DNA of 64,000 nucleotides, taken from the NCBI GenBank assembly GCA_045533905.1, contig JAZSIR010000012.1, positions 1 to 64,000 on the forward strand, given 5' to 3'. Below are positions 1 through 8,120 of this stretch, in pieces. The notes beneath the pieces were generated by a model. The model was not told the DNA's origin and did not search any database. It was given only the letters and a program-made list of their open reading frames with translations. This stretch comes from Clostridia bacterium (GTDB lineage Bacteria; Bacillota; Clostridia; UMGS1883; UMGS1540). Position numbers and translations under genes: made by a program. How positions within the stretch are numbered: the first letter of the stretch is position 1; each line of letters begins with the position of its first letter.

Positions 1-74
1 AGTAAGTTAATAACCCAAGAAGATTATGATTTGCATATATGGATATAACCTTTTGTAAACTAATTAATTTAGGA

Positions 75-141
75 TTTTTGCCCTAACCTAACACGAACTA
101 CCAAGCTAAAACATTGTCATCTATATTATACAGTCATTATA
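75..141 (+). repeat. Intergenic junction repeat, copy A
   Basis: AACCTAACACGAACTA (85-100) matches 3474-3489 at 15/16; AAACATTGTCATCTATATTATACAGTCATTATA (109-141) matches 3497-3529 at 30/33. Confidence 0.85.
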
Positions 142-179
142 GTAAAGAATGTCGAATATTGTAGAAAGAGGTAAAATAA

Positions 180-935
180 ATGAAACAAACAGAAATTTTA
201 ATAAAGTCAACTGTAGATTATTCTATGCAACCATCATTGTTTTATAAATCGGAAACATGTGAAAAAAGACCGTTATTGGTGGGATTACATACATGGAGCC
301 ACGACAGATTTAATCAAATAAATAATATGCTACCATATGCAGAAAAATATGATTTTAATTTGTTGTTGCCGGAATTTAGAGGAAACAATTTAAAAACAAA
401 TCCTAATAGTACACAGGCATGCGGTTCTGAATTTGCAAAACAAGATATAAAAGATGCTATTGATTACATAATAGCGAACGAAAATATTGATAAAGATAAT
501 ATATTCTTATTAGGTCTTAGCGGCGGTGGGCATATGTCTTTGTTAATGGCAGGGTTTTGCCCTGAATATTTTAAAGCTATTGGGGCATATGTGCCGATTA
601 CAGACCTTGAAAAATGGACAAATCAAAACGCAAATTATCGTGATCATGTTTTGGCTTGTTGCAGTAACGATGATAAAGAAATGAAAAAAAGATCGCCTTT
701 TAACTACATAGAAAATATTGCAAAAGCAAATCTTAAAATTTTCCATGGTAAATTTGACTCTGTCGTTCCGGTGTCGCAAAGTATAGAATTATATGAGAGT
801 ATAATGTTGAAGTATCCGGATGCTCGCGTATTTCTTGATATTTTTGATGGCGGTCATGAAATTGATATGGAAACGGCTATGTATTGGATTATGTCGCAAT
901 ACCGAGGCTCAAATAAAACAACGGTCACTGGCTGA
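180..935 (+). CDS. Alpha/beta hydrolase (peptidase S9/esterase-like)
   Basis: GLSGGG nucleophile elbow, HGKFDSVVP (Asp) and GGHE (His); AGAGG RBS. Confidence 0.85.
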   Translation: MKQTEILIKSTVDYSMQPSLFYKSETCEKRPLLVGLHTWSHDRFNQINNMLPYAEKYDFNLLLPEFRGNNLKTNPNSTQACGSEFAKQDIKDAIDYIIANENIDKDNIFLLGLSGGGHMSLLMAGFCPEYFKAIGAYVPITDLEKWTNQNANYRDHVLACCSNDDKEMKKRSPFNYIENIAKANLKIFHGKFDSVVPVSQSIELYESIMLKYPDARVFLDIFDGGHEIDMETAMYWIMSQYRGSNKTTVTG

Positions 936-939
936 TATA

Positions 940-966
940 TTTTCGATTCTAATTTGACATAAACCA
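940..966 (+). repeat. Degenerate junction repeat (core only)
   Basis: TTTTCGATTCTAATTTGACATAAACCA just after the stop codon; 11/16 match to the core of copy B. Confidence 0.5.
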
Positions 967-1026
967 TGAGAATGACAAACATTAATAAAAGATAAATTTA
1001 GCAATAATATAAAGAGGAGATATAAT

Positions 1027-1662
1027 ATGTTTAAAAATCATTGGAAAGACAAATTGTGGTATGCATATGGAACATCTATGACAAGCGTACAACAAGGAGA
1101 GTATGTACCTGTTGTTGAAAAACTTTCAGGACTAAAGGTTGTAAACAAAGGAATTCCTGGTGGTTCTTTGACTCCAGACGGGTATGGAAAAGGGAATACC
1201 AAAACAGCAATTATGAATTTAGAGGACGGTAAAGAGAAAGCTGACCTTATTACGATAGATGTATTGCCGAATGAGGGGAAAAATGTTGGTGAAATTTATG
1301 ATACGGATGATGAAACGTTTTGTGGCTGTCTCAACCAATGCCTGAGATATTTACAAGAAAACACAAAGGCACAAATTGTATTAATAATAATGATTGGGGG
1401 AAATGAGAATCCGCCTGAAAAAGAAACTGAGACGAGAAAAATCACTCAATTTGAATTTGCACAGAAAATAGAACTTGTTGCAAAACTCAATTCCGTTCCT
1501 GTTATAAATGTCTTCTGCGAATCAGGGTTTGGTTATGCAAGAGTGAAAAACAGGGAATATCAACTTGACAATATCCATCTAAACAAATTAGGAGGATTAA
1601 ATATGGGTAATTTTGTTTGGAGTAAACTTAAAGATATTCCCTTATGGGAAACAGAATTATAG
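1027..1662 (+). CDS. SGNH/GDSL hydrolase family protein
   Basis: YGTSMT (block I), NKGIPG (block II), DNIHLN (block V); GAGGAG RBS. Confidence 0.8.
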   Translation: MFKNHWKDKLWYAYGTSMTSVQQGEYVPVVEKLSGLKVVNKGIPGGSLTPDGYGKGNTKTAIMNLEDGKEKADLITIDVLPNEGKNVGEIYDTDDETFCGCLNQCLRYLQENTKAQIVLIIMIGGNENPPEKETETRKITQFEFAQKIELVAKLNSVPVINVFCESGFGYARVKNREYQLDNIHLNKLGGLNMGNFVWSKLKDIPLWETEL

Positions 1663-1670
1663 TTTTTTTA

Positions 1671-1982
1671 CTCGTGTCAAGTCCTTACAATTTAAAAGAT
1701 TAGTTTGCCGATTTTGATATTTACATATATTATAATATTTACAATAAAGCCTTGCAGAGCAAGTCTTTGCGGCTTTGCCGCTAATGTGCTTCGCACATTT
1801 TGCAATATTGACGGCTTCGTAAAAATGCCCTTGCAAGCAAGCATTTTTACTTATGGTAACGGGAGCGAGAAAATCCAGTATTCTCGCGGGTTCTAATGAA
1901 TTTTGTTTAGAAAAAATGCAGTGAAAAATTAAGGGGAAAATACTAGGTCTTATTATTCACTGTTCTCCAGTCTTGACACGAG
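1671..1982. mobile_element. Non-coding element with 11-bp terminal inverted repeats (MITE-like) and four internal hairpins
   Basis: CTCGTGTCAAG (1671-1681) / CTTGACACGAG (1972-1982); stems at 1746-1776, 1783-1799, 1819-1850 and 1865-1887; no target-site duplication seen. Confidence 0.6.
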
Positions 1983-2025
1983 ATTATAAAAGAATGTCAA
2001 ATGTTGTCGAAAGCGAGGAAGATGA

Positions 2026-3462
2026 ATGAAAAAAACATATATAACATCGATGCCAAACCATATTGGTGCATTTTTAAAAGCGAGCAAGTGCTTTTCGGCA
2101 TTAGGAATTAACATTACTCGTGTAAGTTACAATAAAGCTGTAGATTCGCATACGTTGTTTATAGATGCAGAAGGAACAGAGGAACAACTGAAAAAAGCAG
2201 ATAGTGAACTTGAGAAGATTGGTTATCTTCAAAATAACAACTCAAAAACAAGCATTGTTTTATTGGAGTTTTGTCTGAAGGATGTTCCAGGTAGTGTTAC
2301 GGATGTTTTGACTCTTATTAACAAATTTAACTTTAATATATCATATATAAGCTCACAAGAGAATGGGACAAATTATCAGTATTTTAAGATGGGATTGTAT
2401 GTTGATGATTCGCAAAAAATATCTGAATTTTTGAAGGAAGTTGAAAAAATATGCAAAGTTCGAATGATAGAGTATAACAGCTCAGAGAAGGTTTATGATA
2501 ACAGTATTTTTTACAATACATATGTTATGGGCCTGGCTCAGATTATGGGTTTAACTACCGATATAAGCAAAGAGCTTTTAGTACATGTAAATCTTGCTAT
2601 GCAGACATTGGACGAACAGGGGTTGTCCCCATATCGCACCTTTGACAGCATCAGCAAATTTGCAGAATTGCTTGGGGCTTCAAAAGGAAGGAATTTTTCA
2701 CCACGCATAACTAAACACAAAATCACCGAAAAAACCGAGATAATATTGATAGAACCTCCTTGCGGAAGTAATACAATCATTATAAACAGCGACAGAAAAT
2801 ATTTGTTTATAGACAGCGGTTATGCTTGCTATAAAGAAGAAATGTTAAGCGTATTTAAAGAAATTATACCTGAATTCAATGAGATTAAAAAAACAATACT
2901 TATAACGCATGCCGATGTTGACCATTGTGGACTGTTGCCTGTATTTGATGAGGTTATTGCCAGTCATAAAACTGCAATGTGCTTAAACAAAGAATATAAT
3001 GAGAAAAACGGGTACAGGGAGGAAAATCCCCTGCACAAACCTTATATTAATATTTGCAAATTACTTACTTCGTATAAAACGGTAAATCCCAACAAGGTTA
3101 CAGCATTGTGGGATGATGTGGAAAAGCCTGCAGAACCTCTTACTCAAATTGGTTTTTTTGATTTTGGAGAACTGCATTTTGAGGTGTATGAGGGTCAGGG
3201 CGGACATCTTCCTGGAGAAATAGTTCTTATTGACTATCGAAATCATATTGCAATTACCGGGGATATTTATATTAACATCCATGGATTAACTCAAGAACAG
3301 GCAGAATACAACCAATATGCACCTATACTTATGACATCTGTTGATACTAATCCTGAGCTTTGTGCAGAAGAACGAAAGGCAATCATGCAAAGACTTGGCG
3401 TTGGCAAATGGCAAATTTATGGGGCACATGGATTTAAAAAGGATTATTCAGTTAATGTATAA
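2026..3462 (+). CDS. Tandem ACT domains fused to an MBL-fold metallo-hydrolase
   Basis: ACT-like PNHIGAFL..GINIT and KDVPGSVT..NFNIS; MBL motifs IDSG, THADVDH, GHLPG, ITGD, GAHG. Confidence 0.8.
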   Translation: MKKTYITSMPNHIGAFLKASKCFSALGINITRVSYNKAVDSHTLFIDAEGTEEQLKKADSELEKIGYLQNNNSKTSIVLLEFCLKDVPGSVTDVLTLINKFNFNISYISSQENGTNYQYFKMGLYVDDSQKISEFLKEVEKICKVRMIEYNSSEKVYDNSIFYNTYVMGLAQIMGLTTDISKELLVHVNLAMQTLDEQGLSPYRTFDSISKFAELLGASKGRNFSPRITKHKITEKTEIILIEPPCGSNTIIINSDRKYLFIDSGYACYKEEMLSVFKEIIPEFNEIKKTILITHADVDHCGLLPVFDEVIASHKTAMCLNKEYNEKNGYREENPLHKPYINICKLLTSYKTVNPNKVTALWDDVEKPAEPLTQIGFFDFGELHFEVYEGQGGHLPGEIVLIDYRNHIAITGDIYINIHGLTQEQAEYNQYAPILMTSVDTNPELCAEERKAIMQRLGVGKWQIYGAHGFKKDYSVNV

Positions 3463-3529
3463 TTTTGCTGCTCAACTTAACACGAACTATTGCCAGAAAC
3501 ATTGGCATCTAGATTATACAGTCTTTATA
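3463..3529 (+). repeat. Intergenic junction repeat, copy B
   Basis: Begins immediately after the TAA at 3460-3462; matches copy A in two blocks. Confidence 0.85.
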
Positions 3530-3553
3530 AATTTGGCGGAAGGAGTAAATAAA

Positions 3554-6048
3554 ATGAAAAAGGTATTTTATATAAGAAAAACAGTATGCATATTTTTGAT
3601 GCTGGTGATTCTTGCTACGGCTTTGCCTGTACTTTCTTATGGTTCTACCGAAACGCAAGGCAGTTGTGGAGATAACCTTACCTGGAAACTTGAATACAGG
3701 GTGTTAACCATAAGTGGCAAGGGGCAATGAAGGAATATTCCTTTGAGGACCCTTCTCCTTGGGAAGGAAGATACGACATAGGCCAGGTTATTATCGAGGA
3801 AGGTGTTACAAGTATATCTTATTGTGCATTTTCTATGTGTTCATATATGACAAGTGTTTCTTTGCCCAAAAGCATGAAAAACATACACGAATACGCTTTT
3901 GCAGGCTGTGATGGGTTAAGAGAATTTTCGGTTCATATAGAAAATCCTTATTATAAAACAGTTGATAATGTGCTTTTTACAAAGGATATGTCAAAACTTA
4001 TTTTGTATGTAGGAACAGCCTCCGAATATACAATACCACAGGGAACAAAAATTCTGGCAAGTGGCTCGTTTGATAGTTACAGATTTAGTACATTACGCAT
4101 ACCGGCATCGGTTACTACTATTGAACACGGTGCTTTTTACGGAAATAACTCTGTAAAGGATATTTACTTTGGGGGCACGAAAAAGAGTTGGGACAAAATA
4201 TATGTTGAGTGGAACCCCGACCTTGATGTAACCTATAATGAAAAACTATATATGCATTTTGATAATGACCCTGATATGAACAAGGTAACATCAGTTGAGT
4301 TCACTCAAAGGGTTTATTATGTTATCAGGGGAGAAGAAGTAAATTTGGATGTAAATATATATCCGTCTAATGCTCCCTGTAAAGATGTTTTCTTTACATC
4401 CAGAAACGGTGCGTGCGTTTTAAACAGGAAAGGTAAGCTTGTTGCTATTGAAGTGGGCGAGGCAGAAATTGAGGTTGAAACATACGACAGCCATAAAACA
4501 GCAACCTGTAAGGTTATAGTTCAACATGAACCCGATTACGACCTTTCAGAAACTATTATTTTACCCGAACAAGAGGGTAAGGTTAATAAGAAAACAATTA
4601 ACCATAATGGTGATTACACGCAAATGAATTATCGCAGCGGAAAGCCAAATTACTCTCATCTAATGAAAACCGACATTTTTGATGTAACAAAAGATTCACT
4701 TTCGATTATAGATGGTACAAACGGATATTTAAGTATTGAAAAATACGATCATAATTACAATCTTTTGAGCAAGAAAACAATACAATTCGAACTACCTTTA
4801 TACGGAGGTTTTTACAGCGCCGAAAAATACAATTTTGTGGTTTTTGGACAGGACAACCCAAACGATGACGATAACGTAGAGGTAATAAGGATTGTAAAAT
4901 ACGACAAGGATTTTAACCGATTATCGTCTTGTTCTGTTAAAGCATGCGCGACTGCATATCCATTTAGATCAGGCTCGCTAAGAATGGATTTTGACGGAAA
5001 AACACTAGCAGTACACACAGCTAGGAAACACTACAAAAGTACAGGCGAAATTACTCCTGTAAACCACCAAGGCCAGCTTAGCCTTTTAATGGATGTTGAC
5101 ACAATGAAGATAAAAAATATTTTAACTACATTTCAGGAAAATCATGTTTCGCACTCGTTTAATCAGTTTGTGCAATATGATGGCGAAGATTTGTATTTTT
5201 TAGATCATGGCGACGCATATCCAAGATCGATAATTATGTTTCAAAGAAGAAAAGGCGCTTACACATCAAGGGAGCTTTATGGCTTAAGAGGTGAGATTGG
5301 AGATAATTATACGGGCGTATTTTTAGGTGGATTTTCTGTTGATAAAAATAATATACTTGTTGCCTTTAACAGCATAAATTATGCCGAAAAAGAAAAAATT
5401 GAATATGTAAAGGGCGAAACAAGGGATATTTTATTACTTAGTGCCGAAAAAAATGGCACCAAGATAACAACAAGAAGATTTACCGACTATTTAAGAGAAA
5501 ACAAAGTAGCTTCGTTTCCATATCTTGTAAAGGTTAAAGATGGAATGTATCTTCTTATGTGGGAAGAATTTTTATACAAGTACAGCGAACTTTGGGAAAG
5601 CAATGTAGGCTATACACAGGGCATTAAATATGTGCTTGTAAATGAATACGGCAAAAATCTTTCAAAGGTATTTTACGACAAAGATGCACATTTATCGGAA
5701 CAATGTCAGCCTGTAACAAATGGCAATAAAGTTTTTTGGTTTACAAACGGTGAAAATAACCAGAGTACATTTTACTCGTTATCTTTAGAAAATATATTGC
5801 CAAAGGCAAATGTAACTACAAAAAAGGAAGACGGTAAAATTACAGTTAGCCTTGAATATGCTCCTACAAATTCAATAGTAATTTTAGCACTATATAAAGA
5901 AAAGGCTTTAGTTTCTATTAAAAAGCAAGACTATGTGGGAGAAAATGTTGTTTTTGACATATCCGAAAATTATGATAATGCAGCCGTTTATGTATGGGAA
6001 AGTATTAACACTCTAAGGCCTGTTACAAAGAAGAGCGAAGTAAAATAA
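3554..6048 (+). pseudogene. BspA-like leucine-rich-repeat / Ig-like surface protein split by a 1-nt frameshift at the G4 run 3721-3724 (or a sequencing error)
   Basis: 3554-3730 encodes a signal peptide plus GSCGDNLTW..LTISGKG then stops; one extra G gives ISGKGAMKEY in frame with ORF 3727-6048 (LRR_5 repeats IEEGVTSI, IPASVTTI; Big_2-like domain). Confidence 0.75.
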
Positions 6049-6050
6049 TT

Positions 6051-6097
6051 TAATTTTGCTCTTAAGAACAAAATTTAGCGAAATAATCCTGCATCTA
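6051..6097 (+). repeat. Degenerate junction repeat at the right edge of the AT-rich array
   Basis: TAATTTTGCT identical to 3460-3469, then CTTAAGAAC (core lacking CAC) and GCATCTA at 6091-6097. Confidence 0.45.
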
Positions 6098-6143
6098 AAC
6101 CGTATATCCCTTATATACAAGAGCATAGCAAGGAGGCGCTTCT

Positions 6144-7130
6144 ATGAAGAAAAGAATTACGGCTATTATTGTGACGATGATGCTTTTGATATCCCCGCTG
6201 GAGTCTCTTGCATACGGCTGGATGTGGGGTGTCGGCTTTTTGCCGAGCTTTCCCGTCTCTGTGAACGAGCAGGAATATAATTATAACGAATACGAAACAT
6301 TTCCGCTGCTCGTAAACGGCGGGGTGACATATTTCCCGCTCACATACAATAACGCCATGCTCTTAAACCTCATTCCCGAATATCGCGAAAATCCCTTAAG
6401 TATCGCATACACAAGAGGGAATCCCGATGCGCCAAAGGAAATTTTTAAGAAGCTTCTTATAAAAAAGGTGGAAAATCCCGAGGAAGCGCAGACGATATAT
6501 AGAGACACAAATCTCTATCAAACGCACCACCCAAAGGCCGAAAGAAATGAAAACACGTGTAACTTTGGTACGACTATCACAAAGGAGTACTGCGAACTGT
6601 TTGATATAGAACTCACCATTGACGGGCAAAACATGGTCGAGCTTTCCGAATATCCGATTTTGTATTATCGAAACATATACTATATCCCGCTTTCGTGGCA
6701 GTTTGTGACAGAGGTTCTCGGCGGCACTGTCAGCTTTGATAGTGAAAAGGGCCTCCAGGTACGCGTGAATAATTATTTTACCACTTTAAACGAAACAGAA
6801 AAAATCACGTATACCGAAAACACCTTTGTGAGAAGTCATAGCGAAAACGCCACGTATTATATTAAAGATGACCTCACGGTTTCGCTGACAACGGGGTATT
6901 ATGAACTCACCGGCGCAAGTGAACAAAATCTAAAAATCAAAAAAGGCGATAACCTCTTGGTGCCGCAAGGCTGCTTTGGCGTATTGCAGGGAGAACCCGA
7001 GTTTACGCTCTCGCCGCAGTTTACCATTGACGGCACAAAAATCAAAACGTTTGTGTCCACTTCATATCGAGGACAAAATCCCGTGCCATGCATCGTGGAT
7101 ATAGAAACGGGAGACGTAACCGAACAATAA
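6144..7130 (+). CDS. Secreted hypothetical protein with a duplicated copper-amine-oxidase-N-terminal-like motif
   Basis: Signal peptide; FPLLVNGGVTYFPLT and YPILYYRNIYYIPLS repeats; AAGGAGG RBS. Confidence 0.7.
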   Translation: MKKRITAIIVTMMLLISPLESLAYGWMWGVGFLPSFPVSVNEQEYNYNEYETFPLLVNGGVTYFPLTYNNAMLLNLIPEYRENPLSIAYTRGNPDAPKEIFKKLLIKKVENPEEAQTIYRDTNLYQTHHPKAERNENTCNFGTTITKEYCELFDIELTIDGQNMVELSEYPILYYRNIYYIPLSWQFVTEVLGGTVSFDSEKGLQVRVNNYFTTLNETEKITYTENTFVRSHSENATYYIKDDLTVSLTTGYYELTGASEQNLKIKKGDNLLVPQGCFGVLQGEPEFTLSPQFTIDGTKIKTFVSTSYRGQNPVPCIVDIETGDVTEQ

Positions 7131-7206
7131 AAAAGAACTGATCTTTTAAGGCACCGGAAGGAACGGAAAAGGTCGGTTTTTTGCTGGGCAGAGACGACGG
7201 CTTTTC

Positions 7207-7235
7207 TTGACAAAATGATATACATATGATATACT
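7207..7235 (+). promoter_or_regulatory. Sigma-A promoter
   Basis: TTGACA-N17-TATACT with extended TG. Confidence 0.75.
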
Positions 7236-7271
7236 ATACTATTATTTGGATATATAGATTGGGGCAGTAGA

Positions 7272-8120
7272 ATGATTATAGCAGACGGTTGGAAAGATTA
7301 TGCACTTTTAGAAGCTGCAGATGGGGAAAAGGTAGAGCGCTGGGGCGATTTTGTTCTGCGCCGGCCGGACCCGCAGGCTATTTGGAAACTGGAGAAACCG
7401 CTTACCAAAAAGGTAGATGCATTTTATCACCGCAGCCGTGAGGGCGGCGGTCATTGGGAGTTTTTCAAAAAGCTTCCCGAAAGATGGACTGTTTCGGTGG
7501 ACGGGCTTTCCTTTTATGTGCGTCCCACCGGCTTTAAGCATACCGGTCTTTTTCCGGAGCAGGAGGCAAACTGGCGGTTTATTAAGGCGAATTCTCCTGA
7601 AAAAAGCCGCGTTCTGAATTTGTTTGCCTATACGGGCGGTGCCACGCTCGCGGCGCTCGCCGGGGGCGCGGATGTTGTGCACGTAGATGCCTCTAAAGGC
7701 ATGGTGGCCTGGGCGAAAGAAAACGTCGAGCTTTCCGGCCTTTCGGATCGCTTTGTCCGCTTTATGGTAGACGACTGCGAGAAGTTTGTGCAGCGTGAAA
7801 TCCGCCGCGGCAACCGCTATGACGGCATCATTATGGATCCGCCTTCTTACGGGCGCGGCCCGGGCGGTGAAATGTGGAAATTGGAAAATAAAATTTTTGA
7901 CCTTGTTTCCCTTTGCACACAAATTCTTTCCGATTCGCCCCGCTACTTTATTATAAATTCTTATACCACAGGGCTTGCGCCGACGGTACTTAAAAATATG
8001 CTTATGCTGACCGTTTGCAAAAAATACGGCGGCACGGCAATGGCTGACGAACTCGGCCTTCCTATTGGAAATAGTGGCCTTGTGCTTCCGTGCGGTTCTA
8101 CTGCAAGATGGGAGTGCTGA
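7272..8120 (+). CDS. Class I SAM-dependent methyltransferase (RlmI/YwbD-like)
   Basis: [25 protein letters not shown]. Confidence 0.9.

Follow-up and report, generated by a model that had tools for sequence, protein, structure and literature searches.

The closest described counterparts of the locus analysed here are integrons and mobile elements moved by serine recombinases. In the part of PMC9024848 on which we draw, integrons are nearly absent from Firmicutes, with one complete integron found in this phylum. Streptococcal integrative and conjugative elements (ICEs) with recombinase triplets insert into mutT, traG or hsdM, according to the account excerpted from PMC4701971. CcrAB and other Ccr recombinases accept non-canonical site pairs (PMC5595907, cited in part), which most serine integrases refuse, as stated in the passage used from PMC3783163. 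Here we describe rows of genes in gut Clostridia that are separated by a 186-bp repeat and likely form a system that resembles an integron but uses another class of enzyme. The kind is known, both for serine-recombinase triplets and for cassette arrays; the enzyme clade that belongs to this repeat and its mapped sites are new, and a search of mainly freely available texts found no published description of the repeat or the system.

A repeat between single-gene cassettes

The window, a stretch of 64,000 nucleotides, opens contig C18, which belongs to an assembly of 1.57 Mb. Its bases 1–6050 form an island of low GC content (34%, compared with 48% beyond position 7200) with four accessory genes and three short junctions, all on the forward strand. 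The array, made of one full junction (the 186-bp repeat) and three worn short ones, begins at the contig edge, and its upstream end is absent from the contig. A short junction at 75–97, consisting of a T-tract, CC and a worn right-hand (B′) arm and called attB-type below, lies ahead of an esterase cassette, whose gene (180–935) encodes an alpha/beta-hydrolase by domain match (Peptidase_S9, BD-FAE) and has an 80% homologue within a different array with different neighbours (L022). A worn attB-type junction (940–964), a GDSL/SGNH-like hydrolase gene (1027–1662, weak Pfam match) and the 312-bp stretch studied here (1671–1982) follow, and then a gene for a protein with ACT and metallo-beta-lactamase-fold domains (2026–3462), which has a different leader on other contigs. 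Behind another worn attB-type junction (3463–3486) stands the island's last gene (3554–6048), for a BspA-type LRR/Ig-like surface protein, split into a 58-aa signal-peptide-like frame and an overlapping 773-aa frame. In four metagenome assemblies, the window's esterase gene is joined straight to a repeat, and the ACT gene has a different leader; these contigs are ~85% alike to the window and so belong to other organisms. The same-genus flanks of the downstream methyltransferase yielded no empty site. A conserved ~33-bp leader motif at 109–141 and 3497–3529, with a variant near 6090 and copies on contigs C11 and C17, is found ~16 bp behind many B′ arms and also standing alone; as a guess, it is possibly a promoter for an alternative sigma factor.

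A preliminary description had treated the 312-bp stretch as one non-coding element, and the motifs that it listed are present: perfect 11-bp inverted termini (1671–1681 and 1972–1982), the sequence TTGCCG-N17-TATTAT (1705–1733) and four stems (1746–1776, 1783–1799, 1819–1850 and 1865–1887), with overlapping frames of 50–63 aa and no credible ORF. For the first stem, covariation backs a short hairpin (1751–1763) and not the long pairing. The description was also right that the termini equal the core of the array junction and that the stretch is tied to the array mechanism. Such an 11-bp inverted pair is by itself borderline, occurring in 13 of 200 shuffles of the 6-kb island, and promoter-like sites are no commoner than in shuffles (29 versus 28.4). 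We therefore count the feature as real because it recurs, with matches in 34 of 61 relatives and two further full copies on contig C11 of the same genome, and not because of the motifs alone. The whole 312 nt folds at z −3.8, the termini contributing part, and Rfam models gave no match at E ≤ 5 on window positions 1–7500 or at E ≤ 1 on five loci.

As a single unit the stretch does not hold together: it is a composite of a 186-bp repeat and a 126-bp insert (1734–1859). Without the insert, its length is the modal length of the family; the matches in relatives mostly form two blocks that skip the middle, and metagenome contigs join position 1730 to 1862. The repeat begins with a left inverted arm (1671–1683, reverse strand), an inverted copy of the B′ arm that alignment and the cargo divergence point place at the 3′ end of the upstream cassette. 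An A-rich spacer with a putative sigma-70-like promoter, the TTGCCG motif above, occupies 1684–1733 of the forward strand, and on that strand a conserved hairpin (1865–1887) lies directly behind the promoter-like motif in the uninterrupted repeat. Its stem covaries across 56 variants, with 359 Watson–Crick, 24 G–T and 9 A–C cells and two pairs switching between A–T and G–C. Then come the P arm (1941–1966), a CC dinucleotide (1967–1968) and the B′ arm with its leader (1969–1995), all on the forward strand; alignment and cassette comparison make this last segment, which includes the right 11-bp repeat, the start of the downstream cassette. Conservation across the repeat is highest in the inner P arm. 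Two further candidates were rejected. The B′ arm as a native −35 region with its own −10 box was unconvincing (8/175 versus 0/56 with at least five matches), and the idea that the left and right 13-bp arms share a symmetric core fails because their dinucleotides differ, CC being unmatched at the left arm.

The exact junction pattern occurs in at least 134 stretches, and the matches listed are all from Clostridia metagenome-assembled genomes. With one mismatch allowed, it is present in 52 of 401 genomes of the class (13%), compared with none for the reversed control pattern, which places arrays of diverse accessory genes in a phylum nearly without integrons. Plasmid and phage collections searched by blastn gave no matches, and no viral contig carried the pattern. 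Repeat copies separate single genes, with as many as about six copies per row, and the neighbouring genes are co-oriented with them (114 of 116 upstream, 111 of 119 downstream). The full repeat alternates with a second, short type of junction, which has only the T-tract, CC and right-hand arm; each half of the repeat is also found alone. The 11-bp termini are not fixed ends, since the left repeat is present in 105 of 171 copies and perfect as an 11-mer in 21 of those 105. The cargo is diverse: 52 of 72 scanned cassette genes lack an NCBIfam match at 1e-10. One cassette (L012:1752–2387) encodes a CatA-like O-acetyltransferase, family 2, above the cut-off.

Near-identical cassettes (97–99.6% identity) have different neighbours, behind either junction type. 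They agree from about CC onward, the leaders differing for ~20–30 bp more behind CC in three of seven pairs, and identical cassettes start at CC behind unrelated T-tract flanks. At their 3′ ends, cassettes diverge 0–2 nt behind the left inverted arm in all five cargo groups with an intact arm, and four pairs that lack one show no such divergence at that point. The cargo divergence at the left arm and the agreement from CC imply that the inverted repeats face the cargo. The proposal of an empty cassette or non-autonomous element was thus close to the mark but framed inside out, the predicted crossover lying inside the stretch at CC. A correlation of direct repeats between the two ends of 49 cassettes showed nothing beyond multiple-test noise.

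In 61 of 61 cases not selected on B′, the P arm has B′ behind it, and none is joined to foreign DNA. For ordinary repeats, the closest junction upstream is attB-type in 45 cases, attR-type in 42 and attL in none, with none at all in 3 and a truncated upstream side in 73. Array 3′ ends break at varying positions within the promoter or hairpin, and five arrays (L021, L023, L129, L227 and L287) end with the left arm and a partial promoter fused to a chromosomal promoter or gene. One to four optional two-hairpin modules of ~70 bp, each ending GGTTC, lie inside the P arm of 80 of 192 repeats (L011, L027, L033 and L040 among them). An IS91/HUH origin, considered for the GGTTC ends, was set aside: the window's own genome had no Y2_Tnp match, where the control was silent too, and only a broken Y1 fragment.

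Recombinase triplets and their attachment sites

When 1057 ORFs from 184 loci were clustered, large serine recombinases came out on top, at ten loci, four of which had entered through a dedicated resolvase search; no other recombinase family recurs beside the arrays. At L068, L109 and L121, the repeat lies behind the third gene of a recombinase triplet and has a promoter-like motif closer to consensus; at L107, it lies behind DUF6870, the gene that precedes such triplets. The third recombinase defines a clade (~43 clusters at ≥62% identity, followed by a gap). A search with the protein alone found six more loci, with the repeat at every one, and these make up six of the eight clade rows. The repeat stands within 520 bp of the third-position recombinase in 8 of 8 rows of this clade and in 0 of 41 other rows, which include 11 third-position proteins of other triplets; at one of these 11 (L022), it is found one gene later. 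In a quick tree, the eight repeat-bearing rows form a single branch (SH-aLRT 99). From the stop codon of the third gene to CC is 148–205 bp, the eight clade loci have eight unrelated first cassettes, and two platforms that are 99% identical diverge just behind CC. By sequence, the repeat is the same DNA as the segment separating the third recombinase gene from the element's right end. In the triplet at L227, the Pfam domains and YxRxS are intact in all three recombinases.

The clade was not found in the window's genome (best match 31–37%) or in 87 genomes of its order. It is present in 5 of the 52 repeat-bearing genomes of the class sample and in 2 of 50 other repeat-bearing genomes. A metagenome scan with one recombinase protein returned one unrelated locus, family- and phylum-level searches added no clade loci, and the first-position recombinase had a best match of 36% in five repeat-rich genomes. 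DUF6870 gave no match in the window's genome, where its control was silent as well. The island around the L227 triplet also holds two tandem reverse-transcriptase genes (448 and 666 aa; L227:2175–5673) beside an HTH gene and a YspA SLOG gene, possibly a defence system. Just downstream of the repeat in two genomes (L094:2949–5556 and L101:302–1375), a KilA-N gene is accompanied by a lone serine recombinase and a recombinase fragment, probably another element.

The opposite end of the element was located in genome G192, where the triplet closes an island of 60 kb. The left edge of this island lies behind rplQ and consists of a T-tract, CC and the mirror of the repeat's right arm; in a same-genus genome, rplQ adjoins the gene that follows the G192 array. 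This left end recurs in 9 of 399 class genomes, four of the five clade-bearing genomes among them, and in G498. All ten left ends start with a T-tract, CC and the mirror arm, and their intergenic flanks differ. Both ends lie on one contig in G498 (~9.3 kb apart) and in G192 (60 kb). Five genomes with left ends lack a third-recombinase match. Directly behind the left end at L345:8000–15050 (also at L341 and L340) are RepA_N/DUF6017 and Tad-like genes (CpaB/SAF, ParA-like and T2SSE ATPase); 21 proteins scanned behind one left end included no relaxase or VirB4.

The P arm matches, in inverted orientation, the arm at the ten left ends, of whose element it would form the left half of attP. A virtual attP assembled from both is most symmetric at CC (17.7/26, compared with 3.5–9.5 when the centre is shifted and 7.2 when the arms are shuffled). 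Against type A left ends, subtype A arms agree at 20–21 of 26 positions versus 15, and subtype B shows the reverse; arm subtypes co-vary with recombinase subtypes (A at L225 and L288, B at L227), genomes pairing correctly in four of five cases and failing in G245. In ordinary repeats, the window's copy among them, the arm is of subtype A or is interrupted by hairpin modules. The conserved outer part of both arms spans positions 15–26; the excerpt used from PMC3783163 places the zinc-ribbon (ZD) motif of serine integrases at positions 16–24. The B′ arm shares little with the P arm (9.0/26). Flanks of three of the ten left ends recur elsewhere as uninterrupted attB-type junctions with other genes following, and the short junctions of the arrays have, in sequence, the form of an empty target. 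The symmetry at CC and the T-tract/CC form common to the left ends and short junctions lead us to assign, with high confidence, the short junction as attB-type, the right end of the full repeat as attR-type and CC at 1967–1968 as the crossover dinucleotide. No attP-type or circle junction was seen among the fetched loci, all of them contigs.

Proposed cassette movement and its alternatives

We propose that the repeat is a cassette separator with the attR-type right end of a triple serine-recombinase element, and that the recombinases insert and shuffle cassettes in trans; from the sequence comparisons, we put the probability of this reading at about 0.65. A cassette would be a recombinase-less unit of B′ arm, gene, left inverted arm, promoter and P arm, whose circle would carry a P–B′ site and integrate at the CC of an existing junction (attR × attB or attR × attR). 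Each cassette would supply the promoter for the next, and the left inverted arm would be a second exchange point. Under this model, B′ should stand behind every P arm and arrays should start at attB-type sites without attL, as found. The reaction would have to be non-canonical, because the upstream junctions are attB- or attR-type and never attL. Several observations count against shuffling by the triplet: the rarity of the clade, the lack of circles, the leader mismatches in three of seven pairs, the ragged array ends, the failed pairing in G245, the modules in the P arm and the left ends without a third recombinase.

The most serious alternative, which we consider unlikely, is that the triplet element merely targets cassette junctions and that its right end was captured once, cassette movement being due either to another enzyme that acts on the inverted TTGACAC arms or to homologous recombination between copies of the repeat. 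In its favour, repeats outnumber the enzyme clade about tenfold; the mosaic leaders, the low likeness of B′ to P and the sharp breakpoints at the left inverted arm, which the CC model leaves unexplained, also speak for it. Yet the inner P arm is the most conserved segment and is never parted from B′ for foreign DNA, no second recombinase family recurs among the clustered neighbours, and homologous recombination cannot give identical cassettes that begin at CC behind unrelated T-tract flanks.

Short length, many copies and inverted termini would also suit a MITE-like non-autonomous transposon bounded by the 11-bp repeats. We regard this as very improbable and largely refuted: as the preliminary description had noted for the window, target-site duplication is absent, standing at chance across the family (2 bp, 16 versus 15.3 expected; ≥4 bp, 0), the left repeat is missing from 66 of 171 copies, halves occur alone, orientation is fixed and the longer, transposase-enclosing copies that had been envisaged were absent among the fetched loci.

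The preliminary description had also suggested a unit that makes one structured RNA of ~150 nt, and covarying hairpins behind a promoter-like motif speak for it. This, too, is very improbable, since three of the four stems belong to the few-copy mobile insert, which has 30 distinct copies, 25 outside the repeat and only 5 inside it; the fourth (1865–1887) occurs without the insert, no Rfam model matches, and positions 1735–1900 are unremarkable as RNA (z −1.6) but fold well as bottom-strand DNA (z −5.2). In our preferred reading, the 126-bp hairpin unit would be a later, unrelated insertion into the −10 box. Its copies have a −10-like box at the left end (29 of 30) and an extended −10-like box at the right end (22 of 25 free copies), are often tandem at 123–124-bp spacing and show compensatory changes in 11 of 24 predicted pairs. 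Mean z scores of −2.8 and −3.5 for RNA (top and bottom strands) and of −4.3 and −4.7 for DNA suggest that the insert may act as DNA. Besides the window, copies lie at L013, L036, L037 and L246–L271 and on contigs C3 (~9.3 kb) and C19 (~20.4 kb) of the same genome, and a search of viral contigs gave one match (L290). Hairpin repeats of ~125 bp with insertion sites in promoter −10 boxes and a duplicated extended −10 motif have apparently not been described so far. Like the Gut-1 RNA motif (Rfam RF01706), it is a multi-hairpin repeat of gut Clostridia, but it duplicates a −10 box; the RF01706 model had no match in four genomes with insert copies. Its 12 matches in G047 lie elsewhere (L234–L245); they form pairs that face each other from opposite strands, and at least one lies just behind an apparent tRNA 3′ end.

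Least probable of all is an invertible promoter switch, which the promoter-like motif between inverted repeats had suggested, given the near-uniform co-orientation of neighbouring genes, the absence of a strand-changing joint among those listed for four metagenome assemblies and a CC without counterpart at the left arm.

Comparison with described systems

The naming of the enzyme clade and the mapping of attP, attB, attL and attR make cassette shuffling directly testable, and the arrays lend themselves to the question of why certain elements require a set of three serine recombinases. We tentatively go one step further, to a serine-recombinase integron in gut Clostridia: its platform of three recombinases, a strong promoter and a crossover site might capture and reorder promoter-bearing single-gene cassettes across families, with the P arms and the arms at cassette ends recognised by different subunits.

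Accumulation of recombinase-less units at an att site is shared with CIMEs, which keep attL and attR in the account drawn from PMC5704250, whereas ordinary arrays here start at attB-type sites, with attL in 0 of 87 resolved cases. SCC and pseudo-SCC elements share several serine recombinases, stacked recombinase-less units and, for Ccr (PMC5595907), non-canonical site pairs. SCC elements occupy one site, in rlmH, as units of many kb; the units here are 0.5–3 kb and lie at many loci, and the best plasmid relatives of the recombinases are 32% identical. The elements of PMC6814731, considered as a parallel, are not comparable, since the part cited concerns three separate elements.

With the streptococcal ICE triplets, as described in the portion of PMC4701971 used, the clade shares three tandem Resolvase–Recombinase–zinc-ribbon genes at an element end, which were not found in the window's genome, and very short direct repeats; attL and attR here have a very short shared repeat, and attP is symmetric. 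In place of a single target gene, the flanks of the ten left ends are intergenic and all different: the clade uses cassette heads between genes as insertion points at many loci, and its right end has been multiplied as a spacer between cassettes.

The integrons and CALINs of PMC9024848, in the passages cited, share with these arrays co-oriented, mostly single-gene and exchangeable cassettes whose order is shuffled and whose junction is a repeat. In both, a stronger promoter lies next to the recombinase genes, and many arrays lack the enzyme. No IntI was found beside an array here; the neighbours are serine recombinases, the window's array starts at a contig edge, and the tyrosine recombinases of this genome are far away or on other contigs. 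Three large serine recombinases take the place of the IntI tyrosine integrase, the predicted crossover is the centre of a symmetric double-stranded site and does not have the G/TT of attC, and the cassette ends each carry a promoter-like motif.
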